From NCBI GenBank assembly GCA_021324815.1, contig JAJPIJ010000046.1, forward strand, positions 64,750-128,749: DNA of 64,000 nucleotides, in the 5' to 3' direction. Under the pieces are notes generated by a model. The model did not search any database, was not told the DNA's origin, and saw only the letters and a list, made by a program, of their open reading frames with translations. The stretch's first letter is position 1. Every line of letters begins with the position of its first letter. This stretch comes from Gammaproteobacteria bacterium (GTDB lineage: Bacteria; Pseudomonadota; Gammaproteobacteria; JAJPIJ01). Positions 7,879-51,600 of this stretch are shown in pieces. Made by a program: the position numbers and the translations under genes.

Positions 7879-7954
7879 TGGCGCCCTGGGCAGGAGTCGA
7901 ACCTGCGACCTTCCGCTTAGGAGGCGGACGCTCTATCCACTGAGCTACCAGGGC
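7879..7954 (-). tRNA. tRNA-Arg (anticodon CCT)
   Basis: GCCCTGG-TAGCTCAGTGGATAGAGC...CT-CCT-AA...GGTTCGACTCC...CCAGGGC-G-CCA, 76 nt cloverleaf. Confidence 0.96.
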
Positions 7955-43530: not shown

Positions 43531-43715
43531 TCCGGGCTGGGCGTGAACCACCTCAAGGGGAAGGCACTTTGCCGGACTCTAAAGAATTTCTTGTCGGCAC
43601 GCGACCACCATCGGAAAGCCTGATGTTACTTGGTCGCCCGTAGGTTATTGACCTTTTAGTGTTTTTTAAGTTGAGAGTTGTTCAAGCACATTCCACAGTG
43701 TGCCTGTAGGGGGGA

Positions 43716-44108
43716 TTGCCTCACGATTCCCGCAGTCGCGGCGACTGCGGCGCCCTCAATGCCGGTGCGCTCATACCGCCAGCTGCTGCCGCCTCACGAT
43801 TCCCGCAGTCGCGGCGACTGCGGCCCCTTTGTGAATGATTGACCCCAAAGCTACGGTTTCCGCCTCACGATTCCCGCAGTCGCGGCGACTGCGGCTGAAG
43901 CTGAAGCCGTTGCTCACGCTGACCGAAGTGCCGCCTCACGATTCCCGCAGTCGCGGCGACTGCGGCTATAGTGCTTTTAGCACTTCTATCCATTGCCAAC
44001 TTCCGCCTCACGATTCCCGCAGTCGCGGCGACTGCGGCGCCCGCGCGGTAAAAATTCTCGCCATGCAGGTTGCCGCCTCACGATTCCCGCAGTCGCGGCG
44101 ACTGCGGC
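43716..44108 (-). CRISPR. CRISPR array, 6 repeats of 36 bp and 5 spacers of 34-37 bp
   Basis: Repeats at 43716, 43789, 43860, 43931, 44003, 44073; minus-strand repeat GCCGCAGTCGCCGCGACTGCGGGAATCGTGAGGCGG; the copy at 43716 is degenerate (trailer end). Confidence 0.98.
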
Positions 44109-44300
44109 CCCCCCCCTCCCAAACACCTTAAGAATCCAACGCCTGCCGCTGCATGTTGCGAGCACAAGGCGAGATGAGACGGGGGGACACTAGAGAACCG
44201 GAAGACGGTGGTCGCCATTCACCTGTTTCTCCAGGCAAAATCGAAGTGCGAGCGTCCATGAGGTTTTGGGCCAGCACTTCCGCACTCGCAACGTCGCCGC
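44109..44300 (-). promoter_or_regulatory. CRISPR leader
   Basis: Non-coding stretch between the intact terminal repeat and the tracr region, on the cas side; recurring CTCGCA/TGCGAG motifs. Confidence 0.6.
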
Positions 44301-44311
44301 ATTGTTATAGA

Positions 44312-44385
44312 GCGCAGTCGTCGCGACTGCGGGAATCATGCCAACCCAATGGCGGAGGGTTGATGGTCGGTGGCCTGTGGCCAAA
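44312..44385 (-). ncRNA. predicted tracrRNA
   Basis: 28-nt anti-repeat (44313-44340), stem CAACCC/GGGTTG enclosing CCGCC complementary to the repeat 3' GGCGG, 5' hairpin TGGCC-ACA-GGCCA; lies between cas2 and the array. Confidence 0.82.
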
Positions 44386-44427
44386 AAATCAGGCTAATAC
44401 TTTGGGCAGGAAGTTTCAAGTTCAGAA

Positions 44428-44718
44428 TCAGATGATGGTCACCCGTGAACGCACTTCGTAGGGCAACCCCATTGCGTCGATAATCAGGCTGGCATCACTG
44501 CTGTTCGGGCCGAGCGAAACAAATAACACCTGATCCTCGTCGTGGTTAATCAAATCCCAAAGCTCGGCCTTCAGCTTCGCCAGGCGGAGGTCATCCAGCG
44601 GACATTCAAAGACCGAGTATTGCAGGCGCACGCCAAAACCCTCCAGTGAACGCGCCACCCGCCGCAGCCGTTTCGGGTCGCTGATGTCGTAACTCACAAG
44701 GTAGCGAATCCGGCTCAT
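44428..44718 (-). CDS. cas2: CRISPR-associated endoribonuclease Cas2
   Basis: YLVSYDISD.KRLRRV, G.RLQYSVFEC; ATGA overlap with the cas1 stop. Confidence 0.96.
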   Translation of the reverse strand: MSRIRYLVSYDISDPKRLRRVARSLEGFGVRLQYSVFECPLDDLRLAKLKAELWDLINHDEDQVLFVSLGPNSSDASLIIDAMGLPYEVRSRVTII

Positions 44719-46518
44719 CGCGTGGTAAATCCGTGATAGGTCAATGCTTCTCCGCGCACAAAACGCCACAACTGCCGCGCCTGTACTTCAAGCATCCGGC
44801 GATAAGCCATCTTGTAGCTAAACTCGGGGTGGCTGACCTCCGTATCCAGCCGCCGAAACCATGCCTCCCAGAACGGCCGCCGGCCTTTTTCTGTCAGGAA
44901 AGTCCCATTCGCGCTCTTGATGAAATCCTCGGGGCCAAGTTCACCACGATTAATGAGGCTGATGGCGACGCTGTCGGCGATGAGGGGTCGAAATTCCTCC
45001 ATCAAATCCAGCGCCAGTGCGGGGCGGCCATAACGCGGCTGGTGCATGAACCCTAGAAATGGATCAAGCCCCACTGTATGGCAGACGCCGGTCAGTTCCT
45101 TTGCCAACATCGAATAACCGAGAGAGAGCAGCGCGTTCACGGGATCGCGCGGCGGACGGCGGTTGCGCCCGCGCCAGTCAAACTTCCAGTCAGCCCTTTG
45201 TTTCAGCATGGCTTCAAACTGCTCAAAATAGAGTGCCGCGGCGCCGCCCTCAAAACCAATCAATTCCGTAATGTCTCCCGCTGATTCCGTGGCGTCACGG
45301 AAACCAGCCATCAAACTCAGGACGCGATCCGATGCATCACTGTTACGCATGAGCAAGACGCGCTGGTTATGGATTTTGGCGCGGATTACTTCGCGGGCCA
45401 ATTGCAGCCGCAAGCCGGGCAGCTCAAACAGCCGATATTGCCCGCGTCGTGCGTCCACCCCGCTGGCGGGCAGGCCGCAGAGCATTCCAAGAAAGCGCCC
45501 CGCCGGCGAAAAATAGGCAACCTCAATGCCCAATTCCAGACACGTCTCCATGGCCTGGGCCGTCAGTTGAATTGCACCATAGCAATAGATCGCCCGCACC
45601 TGCTGGCCGGGAATTTTACGCACGCTTTCGCCTTTGACGCTGACGATCAATTCGTCGCCGCGCTGGCCGATTTGCGCGCCGGGCGTTTGTACCACCAGCA
45701 CTTCGCCCTCATCCCCACCGGGGCGTGGTGGCTGCAATGTGGGTTCTTTACCCGTGGATTCCGCGGCAAAATCCAAGGCTTCCAAAATCCGGTCGCTAAC
45801 TGCATCTTCAGGTTCTTCAGCAAATTCGAACCGTAGCTGGCCCTCTGGCTCGACATTCATGCGCCGTTTTGCCCACCAGAGTGATTCGTTGGGCAGGCAT
45901 ATGGGGTAGGCGGAGCAATAAAGACAACGCGCGTCATTCTTCAGCGGAGGAGGACATTTCCCGCTGGCGGCAACTGCCCGTGCTTCCTCGATGGATTTGC
46001 GGACTTTGTCGAACAGCTCCTCAGTGAATTCTACCGGCACACGTCGCTTGTCTGCTGCGTAATAAATCCAGCCGCGCACGGCATTGATCCCATGCTCACG
46101 CAATAGCAGTTCGTAGGCGGCGACCTGCACAGCGTCTGGTTCTTTCGCCACGCGGCCGCCTTCGTTATCACGGCGGGCGGAGCCTTTTTTGTAGTCAATG
46201 ATTTCCGCGCCATCCGGCCCCCCCCTCGACCACATCCACGACGCCGACCAGACCGAGCGATTCGCTTTCCAGGCGCAGGCTGCGGAGCTTCGACCCTTCC
46301 GGCAAACCAAGTTCCCTGGGATCATCCAGTTTGGAAGGCGCGTCCACGTTGCGATGAACATGGCTGCCGGCCACCGTGTCGGCGTTTTCCTGAAAAATGT
46401 TTTCGACCCATTGGAAATAAAACAGCCGTGGGCAATAGACGAAATTGTTGAGCCGGCGCACGGGCATTGGCGGCTGGGGCTCCAGTGTGCCGCTGACTTG
46501 AAGCGGGGCGTCGCTCAT
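44715..46518 (-). pseudogene. cas1: Cas4-Cas1 fusion interrupted by a +1 frameshift (600 aa if repaired)
   Basis: Cas4 N-part (YCPRLFY, G.VDVVE) in one frame; DYKKG, Q..AY, C..CS...IC and Cas1 (EG.AA..YF, R.RRPP.DP.NALLS..Y, LALDLMEEFRP) in the next; break at the C8 run 46218-46225. Confidence 0.9.
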
Positions 46519-46524
46519 GGAGGC

Positions 46525-49500
46525 TCAAGTTCTCCTGCTCCACTCCTCTGGCGGCTCAATTCCCCATGCCTTCAATCGCGCGGCATTGATGGCCATGCAG
46601 TGCCGCCAAGCTTCTTGGCTCACGTAGCCCCAAAGAGCTTTGCCAACGACCAGATGCTTGGGTTGCGGCACGCTAGTAGGTCCGCCTTTCAACGCGGCGG
46701 CGTGGTCGTGGATCCATGTGTGCAAATTGGCGATGTCAGCGAAAAAGTTCGGGTGACGGCTGTCACTTGCCTTGGGCACGCTCTTGACCGCTTGCTGCCG
46801 CAAGCGGCGCTTTTCCGCTTCGTCTGCGGCCTGCTTAGACTGTTTCATCGCTTCGTCCGCTGTCAGGATTCGGATCTGAATGCGACTCTCCTTGGATTGT
46901 TCGCCGAACTTTCGCTTCTCCCTCTCGCTGACAAAGAACGTGTCCGGCTTGATGTCCTCCACGGGGATGACGGCAGCCTGGGTGGCTGCTTTTTTGCCCC
47001 GTCCGCGTCTTGGCTGGTGACTCGATAACATTTCCGGTTTCCGCTCGGAGCGAAGTCGCGAATGGATGCTCCAAACGCGCGGGTCGGCCACGGCGCGTAA
47101 GCCGAGGTTCACGGCAGCATTGATGTCGGCGTGAATCAGCTTCGGCTCCTTTTGTTGATTTTCCTCAAGCATGACCGGCTCAAATCGAACGATTGGCTCG
47201 CCTTTAGTCCGTCGCTCGTGCCCGGCTAAAAGCCTGCTGATTGGTATGAAGATGCTGCCGCCCGCGTCGGGCGCGAGCAATGTGCGCGCGGGCAAGCCTT
47301 TGGATTTGGCATCGTCATTGGCGCTTTTCACCTGCTCAAAAAAGAGTTCCCACTGCTTGCGTCGTTTTTCCTGTTCCGTCCGTTCCTCTTTCCTTTCCTC
47401 CGGCTTGCAAACGCGCCATCGCCATTTCGGCTCTTGCATTGGATCGCCGGAAAGCTCCGTGGCGCGGAAACCGGCGACGCCGGTTCGCGAGCAGAAGCGC
47501 GACGAGTAGGCGGCGGGTGTCTCGACCAACGGCAAACCAAATGGCTCGCACATCTGCTTGAGCTTGTCGCGGATAGCCCGGTGACACCATTTCATCAGGC
47601 GGCTGTTCTCCCGCGGCGCGCGACCCTGGCTGGTGCGGTAGCGGCTGAGGTCTTCGATGACGATGAAATCAACAATGCCGCACCACTGGTTGCCTTTCTG
47701 GGGAGTGACGGGCTGGCCCTTGATATCCGCCTTCACGTATTCGCCGTGGGTGTCTTTAGCTTGGCGCAATTGGGCCTCGGCGTGGTCTTTCGGCTCGGTC
47801 GGCTTCTCGAGCGTCAAACCGAGCGCCTGCGTCAGAATCATGTGGGCCGTCTGATTCCGGCGCTGCTCCTTGATTTCGTCCAGTTTGCCGAGAATCGTCG
47901 GGCACGGATCGGGAATGCTTTCATCGCGAGAGGCTTTCGGCGCGCAGCCAATGTCGCGCCGCAACATTTGGTTGAGCGACTGGCAGCGTTTCCGCAGTTC
48001 CTCAAATTGCTCGATGCGTTCGATGGAAAGCCCGCGCTGGCCGGCGAGCCACTTTTCCTCCTCTGTCAGCCCGTCGCGTTCATCGGCTGATCGCAGAGTA
48101 AAATCCAGCAGGTGACAATCCGGCCTGTCCGGGTGCTTTCGCCAGACCAGCCGCCCGCGTCGAGAGCGGTAGATACGGTTTGCAATCGTTTCCAACCAGT
48201 CTGGCAGCTTTTCGACCAGCGACTTCAACTGCGTTTTCAACGCCTGCACGATTTCCGGATGCTGCTCCGGTTCTTCTTCCGCTTTGTCCAGCTGCGTGTT
48301 CCTGGCCTTGGCTTTTTCGTGAGCGTCCTTGTTCAACCATTCGTGCGGATCGCTTTCAGCGATTTCCTTAATGGCGATGCGGCGGCGCTTCGCCTGATCC
48401 TCGCGCTTGACCTCATCCTGCGGATCGAGAAACCAAATCCAGCGGTGAAGTTTGCTGGCGAAGGACTGCGCGCGGCGGAGGGCGATGAGCAGCTTCGTAT
48501 TCTGATCCGGGAACGAGACCCGTTCTGACAGTGTCGCTGCATCCCTGATGCTGTCATCCAGCAATTCGAGTTGGTGGAACTCCTTGAGCAAATCCAATGT
48601 CTGCTGGCTCTCGGCCTTCGTTGCGTTTCGACCGGCGGACCCGGAAAGCTCCCGGCGGAAATCCTCGCTGCCGGGCACGGGTTTTCCGTCCTTGAAGTCC
48701 GGGCGATAGACCTTGGCATCTTCGCCGGGCAATCGTAGCAAGCCGGTCGTGAGCACCCGCGCATACCAGTCGCGGCGTTCTCCATTGTGCTCGGTTCTGC
48801 CGATGAAGCGCGCGTTCTTCCGCTCGTCGTCCGACAGGCAGCAACTCACTTCGATGATGGCGTAAGCGCCGGCCTGTTTCTGCCCAAGGTCAACCGAGAG
48901 AAGACGGAATGATTTGAGGTCAGGATCGGCGAACCACTGGCGGGGGAATTCCTTATTCCCTTGCACTTTCGACCAGTCTTCGTGAGGCCACCGCAGCGTC
49001 GAATCGTGGTCGTCGCCGTTCCAGTTGAACTGCATCGCCCACGGCCATTTCTCGCGTCCCATTTCCTCCCGCACATGAGCGATGAACCTGTCCTCCTTCG
49101 GCGTGAGTACGAAGTTCAGCAGCAGTCGGTCGGGTTGGTCATTGCGGCTGCCCGGCTTCCAGTCTGGCATCAGCGAAACGGCGTGCTTCTTGAAGTCGTG
49201 CAAATCGTCGTCGGGAATTCCGAGCGCCCGCATCAGCGGCTGCGCCCAGTTCGCGGACTGCAAATCCTCGTTCTCAGACAGCGCGCGCGCCTCATCCCGC
49301 AAGAGCCGCGGCGCGGTGTAGTGAATGCGAACCTCCGCCGGGCGATAGAGCACACCAGCGTTGTCGCCGCACTTCACGGCAATTTGCGTGGTGAAGGAAA
49401 GGCCGTCGGGGCTGGCCTCGTGCGCGAAGCCGCCTTGCGACGCGCCTTTGAAATCGAACAATCGGCGTGAATCGCGCGCGTCCGCGGGGGTGTATTGCAC

Positions 49501-51600
49501 GGGCCGCTTCTTCTTCTCCAAGTCCTCCAGCACGTCACAATACCGGAGGTAGTCGCGGACGATGTTTGTGGAATAGAGGTTTTTTACCCGCTCCTTCTCC
49601 TCGTCAGGAGTGGGCGCTTGCCAGACACACCAGTTGTCCTTCTTGACCAGTTCCTCGAACAGGCGACTGTCGCCCATATCATCGCGGTGTTGGCGCTGGT
49701 AGGCGGCGATGCAATGCTTCAGCTTTGTTTCCTTTCCCGCCGAATATGTCTCGCCCGGCGCGACCACTTTGTTCCATTCCTCGCGCAGTTCTTCGTAGCC
49801 GCGCAGAGCTGCTTGGCTGATGCCGTAGCGATAGATGGTCTTCGGGTCTGCCCCATCGGCTACGCCGAGCGATTCGTGAATCCGCCGCATCGCGGCGAAG
49901 CGCGGGTCGCCGCCGGTCTCGCTAAAGCCGCCGGGAATGAAATCCTCCTCCTCGCCATCATCGGCTTTGCCTTTCTCGCGGGCTTTGCCTTTCTCGCGGC
50001 CTTTGCCCTCGTAGAGTTTCTTAAGTTCCTCGAGTTTTTTCGCCTCATTGTCCCGCTCCTTCTGCTTTTGCCGGATTTGGTGCGGTGACTTGATCGCTTC
50101 CTCGTAGGCGGCATAGTCGAACTTCGTCCAGCCGAAGTAGCCAGGTTTGCAAGCGCCGCTTGGTTCAGCCGGGTCGCCTTCCTGCGCGAGAAATCCGCAC
50201 ATCGCTGTGAAGCTGGGGAAGATGTAGCCGAGCTTACGTTTGAGCCGGGGGATAAAATCTGTCCTAGCAACGGATGTGACCGTGGGTTGGTTGCCTGATT
50301 TGGCTGCGGCTTTGCGGGCTTTCTCCACTTTTTCAGCGGGTTCTTGGCCGTCGTCGCTTCCGCAGAGATCAAACTTGTCAACGAACTCAACATAACGGCG
50401 CTTGTCATTCTTGAGCAGCCAACCCGCGTAACGGTCCTTCAATCTGGCCTTGAGCAGGGTCGCTGTGAACTCCGAGCCGCCGTCAAAATGGAACAGCACA
50501 AATAATTCGACACGAACATTGTCTTTGCCCGGCCCGCTCCGCTTCCAGTTTTGGATGCGAAAAGTGCTCGCGGATTCGGGATTTTCCTTCCGGCGTTGTT
50601 CTTCGTCGTGTCGCTTGGCTTGAATCAGCTCCTGCAGCCGCTTCAGTTCTTTGGTTACGTCAATATTGCTCCCACCAAATCGCTCGAACACAAAACAAAA
50701 CGTCTTGTCCTTCAGCATTTTTTTCGCGGTGTTCAAACATTGCTCAAGCTGATTGATTGCGTCCTCGCCAACGAGATAGCCCGTGTCGTCGCTGTCTCCG
50801 GCCGCCTCGGCGGCCTCTTGTTCGCTGTTGGCTTCCGGCGCGTCGCCATTCTCACCTGAGGGCTCTCCGGCTTCTTCGCCCGCTTCTACACCGCTCAAAC
50901 AACTGTCTTTGACCGATCGCGCTGATAATTGTCTGAGCGCCGCTGCGTCCGCTTGGAACAAGGCATCCATGAAATCGTAGATGCCCTGTTGGTTGCGGTA
51001 AGTTTTTTCGGCGGGAGGTTCGCCGCCCTTGTGTTTCCAGCAGAGCCAGCCAGGGTCTTCGTTCGCCAGCTTTTGGGGCGTGCCCCGGCTTTTCTCCGGG
51101 AACAGTTCGCCGATGACGCCGCGAAAAACATCGTGGAGCTTCCCGTCCGCCCGCTTTGGAAACTTCGCAAAGGCGTGGCCGAAAATGCGATCAATGCACT
51201 GTTCCCGCGTGATGGATTTCGCGTCCAACCCAAGGGTGCGCGCCAGCGAGTGCTTCAATCCCGCTCGTTTGCCGCCTTTGTGAACGAAGTCGTCCCACCG
51301 CCCCTCGATGCAGCCGTCAGCGGTCTTGGGCTTGCCGTTCCCGAACAACTGCTCGGCAAACTGGGCCATCGGTGTCGGTTTTTCCTTTCCGTCCTTATCT
51401 TTCTCAACCATCCCGTCCGCCATCGCCGCGAGCGCGAAGGCGTAGTAGTTCACCGCATCCTGAAACAGCGCGTGATGCTCCCACAGCATTTGCTCGCCGA
51501 GTTTGCGCGCGGCTTTCGGATCGTCGGCGAGCGATTTGAATCCGCCGTGACCGTCTGCAATTTCGACTGCGCTGACGCGGCCTTGGTAGATGCGGTTCAT
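46525..51600 (-). CDS. cas12b: type V-B CRISPR effector Cas12b (C2c1)-like, 1691 aa
   Basis: RuvC-I SVDLG (D904), RuvC-II IVIEDL (E1316), RuvC-III HADINAA (D1492); N-terminus NRIYQGRV..LW.HH.LFQ.A.NYY and ETPAAYSSRF as in Opitutaceae-type C2c1; linked cas4/1, cas2, tracr and array. Confidence 0.92.
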   Translation of the reverse strand: MNRIYQGRVSAVEIADGHGGFKSLADDPKAARKLGEQMLWEHHALFQDAVNYYAFALAAMADGMVEKDKDGKEKPTPMAQFAEQLFGNGKPKTADGCIEGRWDDFVHKGGKRAGLKHSLARTLGLDAKSITREQCIDRIFGHAFAKFPKRADGKLHDVFRGVIGELFPEKSRGTPQKLANEDPGWLCWKHKGGEPPAEKTYRNQQGIYDFMDALFQADAAALRQLSARSVKDSCLSGVEAGEEAGEPSGENGDAPEANSEQEAAEAAGDSDDTGYLVGEDAINQLEQCLNTAKKMLKDKTFCFVFERFGGSNIDVTKELKRLQELIQAKRHDEEQRRKENPESASTFRIQNWKRSGPGKDNVRVELFVLFHFDGGSEFTATLLKARLKDRYAGWLLKNDKRRYVEFVDKFDLCGSDDGQEPAEKVEKARKAAAKSGNQPTVTSVARTDFIPRLKRKLGYIFPSFTAMCGFLAQEGDPAEPSGACKPGYFGWTKFDYAAYEEAIKSPHQIRQKQKERDNEAKKLEELKKLYEGKGREKGKAREKGKADDGEEEDFIPGGFSETGGDPRFAAMRRIHESLGVADGADPKTIYRYGISQAALRGYEELREEWNKVVAPGETYSAGKETKLKHCIAAYQRQHRDDMGDSRLFEELVKKDNWCVWQAPTPDEEKERVKNLYSTNIVRDYLRYCDVLEDLEKKKRPVQYTPADARDSRRLFDFKGASQGGFAHEASPDGLSFTTQIAVKCGDNAGVLYRPAEVRIHYTAPRLLRDEARALSENEDLQSANWAQPLMRALGIPDDDLHDFKKHAVSLMPDWKPGSRNDQPDRLLLNFVLTPKEDRFIAHVREEMGREKWPWAMQFNWNGDDHDSTLRWPHEDWSKVQGNKEFPRQWFADPDLKSFRLLSVDLGQKQAGAYAIIEVSCCLSDDERKNARFIGRTEHNGERRDWYARVLTTGLLRLPGEDAKVYRPDFKDGKPVPGSEDFRRELSGSAGRNATKAESQQTLDLLKEFHQLELLDDSIRDAATLSERVSFPDQNTKLLIALRRAQSFASKLHRWIWFLDPQDEVKREDQAKRRRIAIKEIAESDPHEWLNKDAHEKAKARNTQLDKAEEEPEQHPEIVQALKTQLKSLVEKLPDWLETIANRIYRSRRGRLVWRKHPDRPDCHLLDFTLRSADERDGLTEEEKWLAGQRGLSIERIEQFEELRKRCQSLNQMLRRDIGCAPKASRDESIPDPCPTILGKLDEIKEQRRNQTAHMILTQALGLTLEKPTEPKDHAEAQLRQAKDTHGEYVKADIKGQPVTPQKGNQWCGIVDFIVIEDLSRYRTSQGRAPRENSRLMKWCHRAIRDKLKQMCEPFGLPLVETPAAYSSRFCSRTGVAGFRATELSGDPMQEPKWRWRVCKPEERKEERTEQEKRRKQWELFFEQVKSANDDAKSKGLPARTLLAPDAGGSIFIPISRLLAGHERRTKGEPIVRFEPVMLEENQQKEPKLIHADINAAVNLGLRAVADPRVWSIHSRLRSERKPEMLSSHQPRRGRGKKAATQAAVIPVEDIKPDTFFVSEREKRKFGEQSKESRIQIRILTADEAMKQSKQAADEAEKRRLRQQAVKSVPKASDSRHPNFFADIANLHTWIHDHAAALKGGPTSVPQPKHLVVGKALWGYVSQEAWRHCMAINAARLKAWGIEPPEEWSRRT

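Follow-up and report, generated by a model that had tools for sequence, protein, structure and literature searches.

Organization of the locus

We analyzed a 64,000-nucleotide (nt) stretch of DNA, referred to below as the window, from a Gammaproteobacteria bacterium (GenBank assembly GCA_021324815.1, contig JAJPIJ010000046.1, positions 64,750–128,749). A preliminary description of the window had pointed to a single open reading frame (ORF) encoding an oversized protein similar to Cas12b, the effector of type V-B CRISPR systems. On the minus strand, the order of the locus is cas12b, a cas4/cas1 fusion gene, cas2, a predicted trans-activating CRISPR RNA (tracrRNA), a leader and a CRISPR array, and a gene for formate–tetrahydrofolate ligase (FTHFS) lies upstream of cas12b. 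Judged by its gene order, this is the standard arrangement of a type V-B locus. We consider it highly probable that the ORF is a functional-looking Cas12b from a long-form subclade (1,644–1,760 amino acids [aa]) within a branch of ~1,400-aa proteins, that its locus is a canonical V-B locus, and that its extra length represents a lineage-specific decoration of the helical (recognition, REC), RuvC and Nuc domains. The features of the locus are summarized in Table 1.

Table 1. Features of the type V-B locus, with positions given in the window.
Feature	Position	Strand	Basis and remarks
cas12b (P0001)	46525–51600	−	1,691 codons/aa; ORF and translation, NF033949, PF22126, Foldseek
RuvC-I, SVDLG, residues 902–906 (D904)	48883–48897	−	D904 invariant; aligns with RuvC-I of BthCas12b and ChCas12b
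RuvC-II, IVIEDL, residues 1313–1318 (E1316)	47647–47664	−	E1316 invariant; top-scoring stretch against all five PDB Cas12b sequences
RuvC-III, HADINAA, residues 1490–1496 (D1492)	47113–47133	−	aligns with ChCas12b 1358–1380
Acidic tract, residues 239–272	50785–50886	−	predicted disordered loop, N-terminal helical region
18-nt tandem repeat, KGK/EEE loop	49963–50007	−	Tandem Repeats Finder (TRF): period 18, 2.5 copies, 96% matches
Private segments, N-terminal part			residues 85–97, 152–160, 244–276, 299–314, 330–343, 402–438, 478–486
Private segments, remainder			residues 813–820, 1060–1067, 1100–1111, 1293–1300, 1461–1478, 1575–1602
cas4/cas1, N-terminal piece, 107-aa ORF	46195–46518	−	NF049935 (cas4g_cas1g) profile 2–85; homology at aa 1–73
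cas4/cas1, C-terminal piece, 548-aa ORF, other frame	44715–46361	−	NF049935 profile 91–546; homology from aa 47
G8 homopolymer	46218–46225	−	ends the 46223–46299 interval that holds the frame change
cas2	44428–44769	−	Pfam PF09827 and TIGR01573, both matching from aa 22
Predicted tracrRNA core	44313–44383	−	stem 1 44383–44371, linker CCGACCA, hairpin 44363–44341, anti-repeat 44340–44313
Leader, anti-repeat to first repeat	44109–44312	−	~200 nt
CRISPR array	43716–44108	−	six repeats of 36 nt, five spacers of 34–37 nt

Identification of a full-length Cas12b

The 1,691-aa ORF was recovered as it had been described, and we could add its strand (minus), which the preliminary description did not give. 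Every motif quoted there was also found at its residue: NRIYQGRV at 2–9, APRLLRD at 763–769, LRLPGEDA at 955–962, AGQRG at 1186–1190, ERIEQ at 1194–1198 and PAAYSSRF at 1362–1369. The protein matched the NCBIfam equivalog model for Cas12b (NF033949) with 1,172.8 bits (E = 0; cut-off, 150 bits), and this match extended over residues 39–1670 and over profile positions 1–1252 of 1253. Pfam placed the C2c1_RuvC-like family (PF22126) at residues 1311–1393, and no HNH family was among the Pfam and NCBIfam matches of the product. The catalytic residues D904, E1316 and D1492 were invariant in 20 of the 20 aligned members of the long clade, and in RuvC-III the residues H1490, N1494, A1495 and A1496 were invariant together with D1492. 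The full-length model match and the presence of the three catalytic residues bear out the earlier assignment to a V-B effector with an intact RuvC triad. The N-terminal residues M1-N2-R3-I4-Y5-Q6-G7 were invariant or nearly so in the same 20 proteins, and the start codon of cas12b is therefore considered to be correct. By these matches, the ORF is a full-length Cas12b and not a chance match. According to NF033949, it is the single Cas12b copy in the whole 2.37-Mb genome.

When the protein was compared with sequences in the Protein Data Bank (PDB) using phmmer, the best match was BthCas12b (5wti, 53 bits), followed by ChCas12b (9kln, 45 bits) and AacCas12b (34–39 bits). Good scores were confined to RuvC-II, and RuvC-I, RuvC-III and one helical-I segment also aligned. 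The protein was then modeled with AlphaFold2 (AF2) as two halves, each with a 41-sequence alignment and without RNA or DNA. Residues 1–900 were predicted with a predicted local distance difference test score (pLDDT) of 81.5 and a predicted template modeling score (pTM) of 0.78, and residues 860–1691 with a pLDDT of 81.5 and a pTM of 0.81. In Foldseek searches against the PDB, the N-terminal half matched four chains with E ≤ 0.001 among the 251 listed, all of which were Cas12b (5u34, 5wqe, 5wti, and 9kln). For the C-terminal half, the top eight matches were Aac, Ch or Bth Cas12b (E = 8e-16 to 2e-12), and Cas12i came next at E = 1e-7. Cas12b structures were thus the best matches of both halves, in keeping with the bilobed fold of the family (helical-I/II, OBD, RuvC and Nuc). 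The global TM-scores of both halves were low (0.25–0.45), as is expected because half-proteins were modeled without RNA or DNA. The models should therefore be read as giving the best match, and not a superposable structure.

Relatives, size and phylogeny of the effector

In a database search, the best 120 of the 278 proteins with E ≤ 0.001 were listed. Among these 120 matches, at least 19 were public full-length relatives of 1,644–1,760 aa with 47–84% identity, so the window protein is not a singleton. Some of them, from metagenome-assembled genomes (MAGs) labeled Methylomirabilota or Verrucomicrobiaceae, already carry the NCBI name "type V CRISPR-associated protein Cas12b". The next group among the matches listed consisted of proteins of ~1,330–1,515 aa with 35–41% identity. 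The relatives of the effector are mostly verrucomicrobial, and the nearest large group is the ~1,400-aa branch, mainly from Verrucomicrobiota MAGs, including those of Opitutaceae. The protein had been likened to an Opitutaceae-type effector of ~1,400 aa; this holds insofar as the nearest large group includes Opitutaceae, but the host itself is probably Burkholderiales-like (see below). As a separate observation, the public protein P0023 (1,435 aa) consists of Cas12b residues 78–957 fused directly to Cas4/Cas1 from about residue 72 and has neither RuvC-II nor RuvC-III, which points to a deletion variant of natural origin or to an error of assembly.

An exhaustive search of residues 860–1691 against representatives at 50% identity retrieved 627 representatives with E ≤ 0.001, of which 205 had E ≤ 1e-30. 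At this level of clustering, the long clade is a single representative (P0014), and other lineages reach 1,781, 1,654 and 1,595 aa. In a FastTree phylogeny of 110 rows, rooted at the midpoint and with the canonical short-form Cas12b outgroup left out, the ten rows of the long clade were monophyletic (support, 100), and their sister was a 1,464-aa protein (support, 100). The long clade was nested among proteins of 1,350–1,500 aa, and lengths of ≥ 1,600 aa required at least three changes on the tree. This distribution suggests that a length of ≥ 1,600 aa arose at least three times in the Cas12b family.

The sizes given earlier for characterized Cas12b proteins agree with the PDB chains, which are 1,108 aa (5wti) and 1,130–1,137 aa (5u30 and 5wqe). 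A review of 2023 gives the size of V-B effectors as "~1300" aa (PMC10734277), and the longest characterized Cas12b that we found is ChCas12b, with 1,496 aa (PMC12204704). Our full-text literature searches found no paper on a ~1,700-aa or verrucomicrobial-type Cas12b, and none characterizing any member of the ~1,350–1,500-aa branch. "EbCas12b" (Strecker 2019) may be a member from Elusimicrobia. The effector is longer than any characterized Cas12b that we found, and the earlier view of it as a divergent, probably uncharacterized V-B effector is upheld.

Distribution of the extra residues

According to sequence anchors, the protein has, relative to BthCas12b (1,108 aa), ~306 additional residues before the helical-I anchor, 18 from there to RuvC-I, 158 in the helical-II interval from RuvC-I to RuvC-II, 53 from RuvC-II to RuvC-III, and 42 at the C-terminus. 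Most of this extra length is common to the ~1,400-aa branch. In a comparison with 40 proteins of that branch, in which pieces of ≥ 8 aa were counted, the window protein contained 13 private segments of 8–37 aa each, 213 aa in total, of which only 131 fall in residues 85–486; conversely, 54 columns of the ~1,400-aa-branch proteins are absent from it. It had been stated that the extra residues lie mostly in the REC lobe. This is true relative to BthCas12b by the anchors, but against the ~1,400-aa type the extra residues are 13 scattered pieces. An inserted extra domain was also considered and was rejected, given the small size of the pieces and the lack of an additional family in Pfam and NCBIfam. 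Across the clade, the occupancy of most insertions was 0.68–1.00, with only 0.34 for residues 85–97.

Four of the private segments (299–314, 330–343, 402–438 and 1575–1602) are confident predicted helices in the AF2 models. The sole private segment predicted to be disordered is 244–276, the acidic tract, with a pLDDT of < 50 for residues 242–272. This acidic segment is present in 20 of 20 clade members, where it has 36–43 residues with 9–17 aspartate or glutamate and 0–4 lysine or arginine residues; its sequence is not conserved, and it is missing from the ~1,400-aa clade. The "tandem KGKxRE repeat" pointed out earlier is a genuine 18-nt tandem repeat according to TRF. It produces a 6-aa duplication that is private to the window genome, so that the KGK/EEE segment is 29 aa long as against 21–23 aa in 19 relatives. 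The segment itself is common to the wider branch, being present in the consensus of the 41-sequence alignment, and the duplication lies in a low-confidence loop (pLDDT < 50 for residues 542–552). The basic stretch at 1528–1541 is also of low confidence in the model and is rich in lysine and arginine in all members. Two of the insertions that had been flagged, the acidic tract and the KGK repeat, are thus predicted to be loops without order. The remaining long insertions of the protein are predicted to be folded.

The CRISPR array and the guide RNAs

The array is the only one with its repeat in the 2.37-Mb genome. A degenerate repeat occurs at its cas-distal end, and two of the compared loci, L003 (28 repeats) and L004 (33 repeats), have their arrays downstream of cas12b on the same strand, with repeat 3' ends (TTGAGGCGG and TTGAGACGG, respectively) similar to that of the window (CGTGAGGCGG); these two features fix the orientation of the array. 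The repeats end in GGCGG in 47 of the 51 loci with an array and the tracrRNA motif. The genome of L004 has, in addition, a second array at a contig end (G042:C9:1-1653, L089), and its 72% identity to the L004 array region over ~1.65 kb suggests that it is of the same repeat family. All five spacers of the window start with CA or AA immediately after the repeat GGCGG (43825–44072), which may be due to chance (n = 5); there was no bias in the two nucleotides after the 28 repeats of L003.

The five spacers of the window matched nothing in the 2.37-Mb host genome apart from themselves. A comparison with 50,697 phage records gave no match for the array of the window or for those of L003 and L004. 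Among 72,556 plasmid records there was likewise none for the window array, and the arrays of L031 and L069 had no non-array match in five genomes. The sole protospacer-like match was that of a 33-nt spacer of L003, a Verrucomicrobiaceae relative, which perfectly matched its own genome (L003:16217-16249 / L086:1501-1533, i.e., G041:C8:26494-26526) inside a 278-aa ORF. The flanks of this match, 5' GGAT and 3' AACGAC, are not T-rich, and a single case is too few to define a protospacer-adjacent motif (PAM).

The ends of the tracrRNA are predicted ones. Its anti-repeat begins 87 nt past the cas2 stop codon and, at 26 of 28 positions, agrees with the repeat's reverse complement; the hairpin consists of 7 base pairs (bp) with a 9-nt loop, UCCGCCAUU. 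The cas2-to-array intervals of the window, L083 (the one locus yielded by a metagenome contig scan), L003 and L004 have a conserved block in common, which a strict two-motif pattern found in 38 loci among those scanned (L001–L083). In an RNAalifold analysis of 42 sequences, there were 10 consensus pairs, eight of them with compensatory changes, and five pairs of the 7-bp hairpin changed on both sides in 11–15 of the 42 sequences. The repeat end GGCGG is complementary to CCGCC in the hairpin loop; in L004, where the repeat ends in GACGG, the loop carries the matching CCGTC. We read this potential CCGCC:GGCGG pairing as the second short repeat:anti-repeat duplex that is described for Cas12b guide RNAs (PMC12204704). 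According to the same paper, a longer stem 2 of the ChCas12b tracrRNA encloses stem 3.

The window repeat differs from those of L030 and L006, which belong to the ~1,400-aa clade, at three of 36 positions. The first repeat is located 250 nt past the loop motif of the tracrRNA, and the distance is 243–250 nt in the compared loci and ~190–230 nt in some others. Because the repeat family, the scaffold and, in most of the compared loci, the spacing are common to the ~1,400-aa loci, the RNA parts are ordinary for the branch. The scaffold looks more compact than the published single-guide RNA of ChCas12b, with a 9-nt loop in place of a stem that encloses another stem, but this is seen in the whole branch and not with the long protein alone. 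The suggestion of a new RNA-handling mode is accordingly unsupported, as the ~1,400-aa branch has the same tracrRNA scaffold and the same kind of repeat with a GGCGG 3' end.

At the gathering threshold, Rfam gave nothing in the locus, and its only match in the window was a tRNA on the minus strand (7882–7954). Folding 44230–44430 as a single sequence gave little information (z-score, −2.8). A promoter and terminator scan gave nothing convincing for the tracrRNA. Upstream of the scaffold, many loci contain TTGCA followed ~17–20 nt later by GTTGAAT (alignment A5, columns 3–36), and the equivalent in the window (~44419–44390) is TTGAAA and then TATTAG. The tracrRNA may have its promoter in this block, which was not among the calls of the sigma-70 scan. 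In three loci of the ~1,400-aa clade (L006:5494-5618, L008:936-1060 and L019:5486-5610), a second copy of the tracrRNA scaffold lies upstream of cas12b; these copies contain stem 1, ACCGACCA and the hairpin with the CCGCC loop, but their 3' part differs and shows no obvious anti-repeat.

A frameshift in the cas4/cas1 gene

The cas4/cas1 fusion is a single ORF of 604–638 aa in L001, L003 and L083, and the two pieces share one frame in these loci and in L004. In the window, it is divided between two frames. In the C-terminal piece, Pfam placed Cas4 at 54–156 and Cas1 at 222–501, and this piece scored 516 bits against NF049935 (cut-off, 560). The likely start of cas2 is the ATG at 44718, which gives an ATGA overlap with the cas1 stop codon.

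We compared this region with contigs from four public runs belonging to three studies (mine, 2024; two soil studies, 2017). The contigs, 7.9–9.1 kb in length, matched 44079–46600 without a substitution or gap and continued past both ends. An assembly error specific to the MAG was thus rejected as the cause of the frameshift, since contigs from three studies carry identical letters. Contigs hide minority variants, and an in-frame minority is possible. In one soil run, the contig (at window positions 43684–44108) passes from the leader-proximal first repeat directly into the array trailer, which suggests either a spacer-less single-repeat variant in that run or a collapse of the repeats by the assembler.

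Host and origin of the locus

The source genome is 2.37 Mb in 54 contigs and is 98% complete. A cas12b match was found in none of 40 related genomes (same genus, one; same family, seven; same class, 32). The flanks of the locus contain housekeeping genes (NfeD/SPFH, a gene similar to type III polyketide synthases, FTHFS, CTP synthase and enolase), and no mobile-element gene was found among the annotated neighbors. The best named relatives of the neighboring CTP synthase (PyrG) are a Gammaproteobacteria MAG (95%) and Burkholderiales or Betaproteobacteria MAGs (~80%), and the host is therefore probably Burkholderiales-like. The GC content is 0.55–0.61 over 44–52 kb, compared with 0.62–0.70 in most flanking windows. 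The locus is a lower-GC island that was apparently acquired horizontally, which fits with a Burkholderiales-like host and an effector whose relatives are mostly verrucomicrobial. Horizontal acquisition is typical of V-B systems, according to Strecker et al. (PMC6342934).

Comparison with characterized Cas12b systems and proposed mode of action

Among the closest characterized systems is ChCas12b from Candidatus Hydrogenedentes (PDB 9KLN/9KLO/9KLP/9KLQ), which is likewise a long-form V-B effector. According to its description (PMC12204704), its helical-I, helical-II, RuvC and Nuc domains are larger than those of AacCas12b, as in the window protein, and it has been studied by cryo-electron microscopy, with a TTN PAM and a 24-bp heteroduplex. 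The two systems share the use of dual RNA and of one RuvC site formed by a D/E/D triad, and the RuvC-I, II and III segments align; ChCas12b is among the best structural matches of the C-terminal half (E ~1e-15). It is nevertheless on a different branch, as its phmmer score above shows, and the window protein is ~195 aa longer, with ~152 more residues before the helical-I anchor, ~43 fewer in helical-II and ~98 more after RuvC-II by sequence anchors. In PMC12204704, duplex 2 is drawn from G(-5) to C(-1) and the tracrRNA with three stems, whereas the window has a repeat ending in GGCGG and a 9-nt tracrRNA loop.

AacCas12b, BthCas12b and BhCas12b (1,108–1,137 aa; 5U30, 5WQE and 5WTI) share the family model, fold, locus order and RuvC triad with the window protein, and their tracrRNAs also lie between cas2 and the array; AacCas12b and BthCas12b are among the best Foldseek matches of both halves. 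They differ in being ~555–583 aa shorter, thermophilic or Bacillus-type, and experimentally characterized. The branch of ~1,350–1,500 aa (L005–L080), from MAGs of Verrucomicrobiota, Lentisphaerota, Elusimicrobiota and Omnitrophota, is 35–38% identical, the best local alignment covering ~70% of the query. It has the same family of 36-nt GGCGG repeats, the same tracrRNA scaffold and, in most of the compared loci, the same array spacing as the window, but it lacks the 13 extra segments (213 aa, including the acidic loop) of the window clade.

We propose that transcription of the array and the tracrRNA would run the same way as that of the cas genes, that the anti-repeat would pair with repeat nucleotides 3–30, and that CCGCC in the hairpin loop would pair with GGCGG, the last five nucleotides of the repeat. 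By analogy with characterized Cas12b, a host RNase would trim the duplex, and Cas12b would bind the dual RNA and read a 5' PAM, probably T-rich; an R-loop would then form, and the RuvC site D904/E1316/D1492 would cut both strands and leave staggered ends. A 5' T-rich PAM, a staggered double-stranded DNA break and collateral cleavage of single-stranded DNA are given as type V-B properties in Table 1 of PMC10734277 and in PMC12204704.

Evaluation of alternative explanations

Several points weigh against the view that the ORF is a functional-looking, long-form Cas12b. The similarity to the solved structures is weak at the sequence level outside RuvC-II, the best PDB match scoring 53 bits, and the models have low TM-scores and are of halves predicted apart without RNA or DNA. 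The tree is rooted at its midpoint and has no canonical short Cas12b as an outgroup. The tracrRNA hairpin encloses only a 9-nt loop, so the topology of the guide may differ from the solved ones, and the sole self-matching spacer has GGAT on its 5' side and not TTN. All the proposed steps past RNA pairing draw on Aac, Bth and ChCas12b. Finally, cas4/cas1 is frameshifted, the array is short, and the contig of one run apparently has a single repeat, all of which may mean that the locus is losing its function. The last of these points can be developed into the idea of a decaying remnant, in which the effector has kept its reading frame but has ceased to serve in defense. The frameshift occurs in the contigs of all four runs and three studies, the five spacers compare with arrays of 28 repeats in L003 and 33 in L004, and those spacers are unmatched in the host genome and in the phage and plasmid records. 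Nevertheless, we regard decay as improbable. The frame of 1,691 codons is intact with every checked family-invariant residue present, and so are cas2, the repeats and the scaffold of the tracrRNA; the second ORF could still yield the Cas1 part; and the contigs could hide an in-frame minority of cas4/cas1. Neither Cas4 nor Cas1 is required for interference, so the five existing spacers may still be in use by the effector.

A slightly better case, though still an improbable one, can be made that the subclade-specific insertions confer a new property, the main candidates being the acidic loop and two insertions predicted to fold as helices, 402–438 and 1575–1602. Such a property could be an autoinhibitory, nucleic-acid-mimicking loop that gates access to the PAM or DNA, or an altered requirement for the PAM or the guide length. 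The acidic segment is kept throughout the clade in spite of its variable sequence and is absent from the ~1,400-aa clade; most of the other insertions are also kept across the clade, and those checked are predicted to be folded. In ChCas12b, lineage-specific features contact the single-guide RNA and a longer heteroduplex, according to PMC12204704. On the other hand, the ~1,400-aa clade has a repeat, a repeat 3' handle and a tracrRNA scaffold of the same family, and the insertions are small and scattered. Large proteins often have disordered acidic loops, and these are frequently neutral. If this idea were true, the insertions would provide a form of regulation absent from every characterized Cas12b, and it might explain why an intact effector stands beside broken spacer acquisition. 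Far less probable than either of these is a binning or assembly chimera, in which the gene would be foreign to the genome. In its favor, the closest relatives among the matches listed are on short contigs binned to unrelated phyla (Methylomirabilota, 82%; Alphaproteobacteria, 78%), and the GC content is unlike that of the flanks. However, the locus is inside one contig between housekeeping genes, the contigs of the four runs match exactly and extend past both ends of the compared region, and one of them continues into the array trailer that precedes the neighboring housekeeping gene.

Implications for type V-B systems

This long-form Cas12b in a canonical locus widens the range of sizes and of hosts known for the family. 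It also highlights a large branch with 36-nt GGCGG repeats and a covarying tracrRNA, whose predicted guide RNA is defined enough for direct testing. With 1,691 aa, the protein is of an unattractive size for a genome-editing tool. Its interest is biological and lies in the apparent horizontal transfer, in the intact effector beside a frameshifted cas4/cas1, and in an acidic loop of conserved composition. The understanding of type V-B systems is unchanged by this effector, which is a new member of the family and not a new kind of system.

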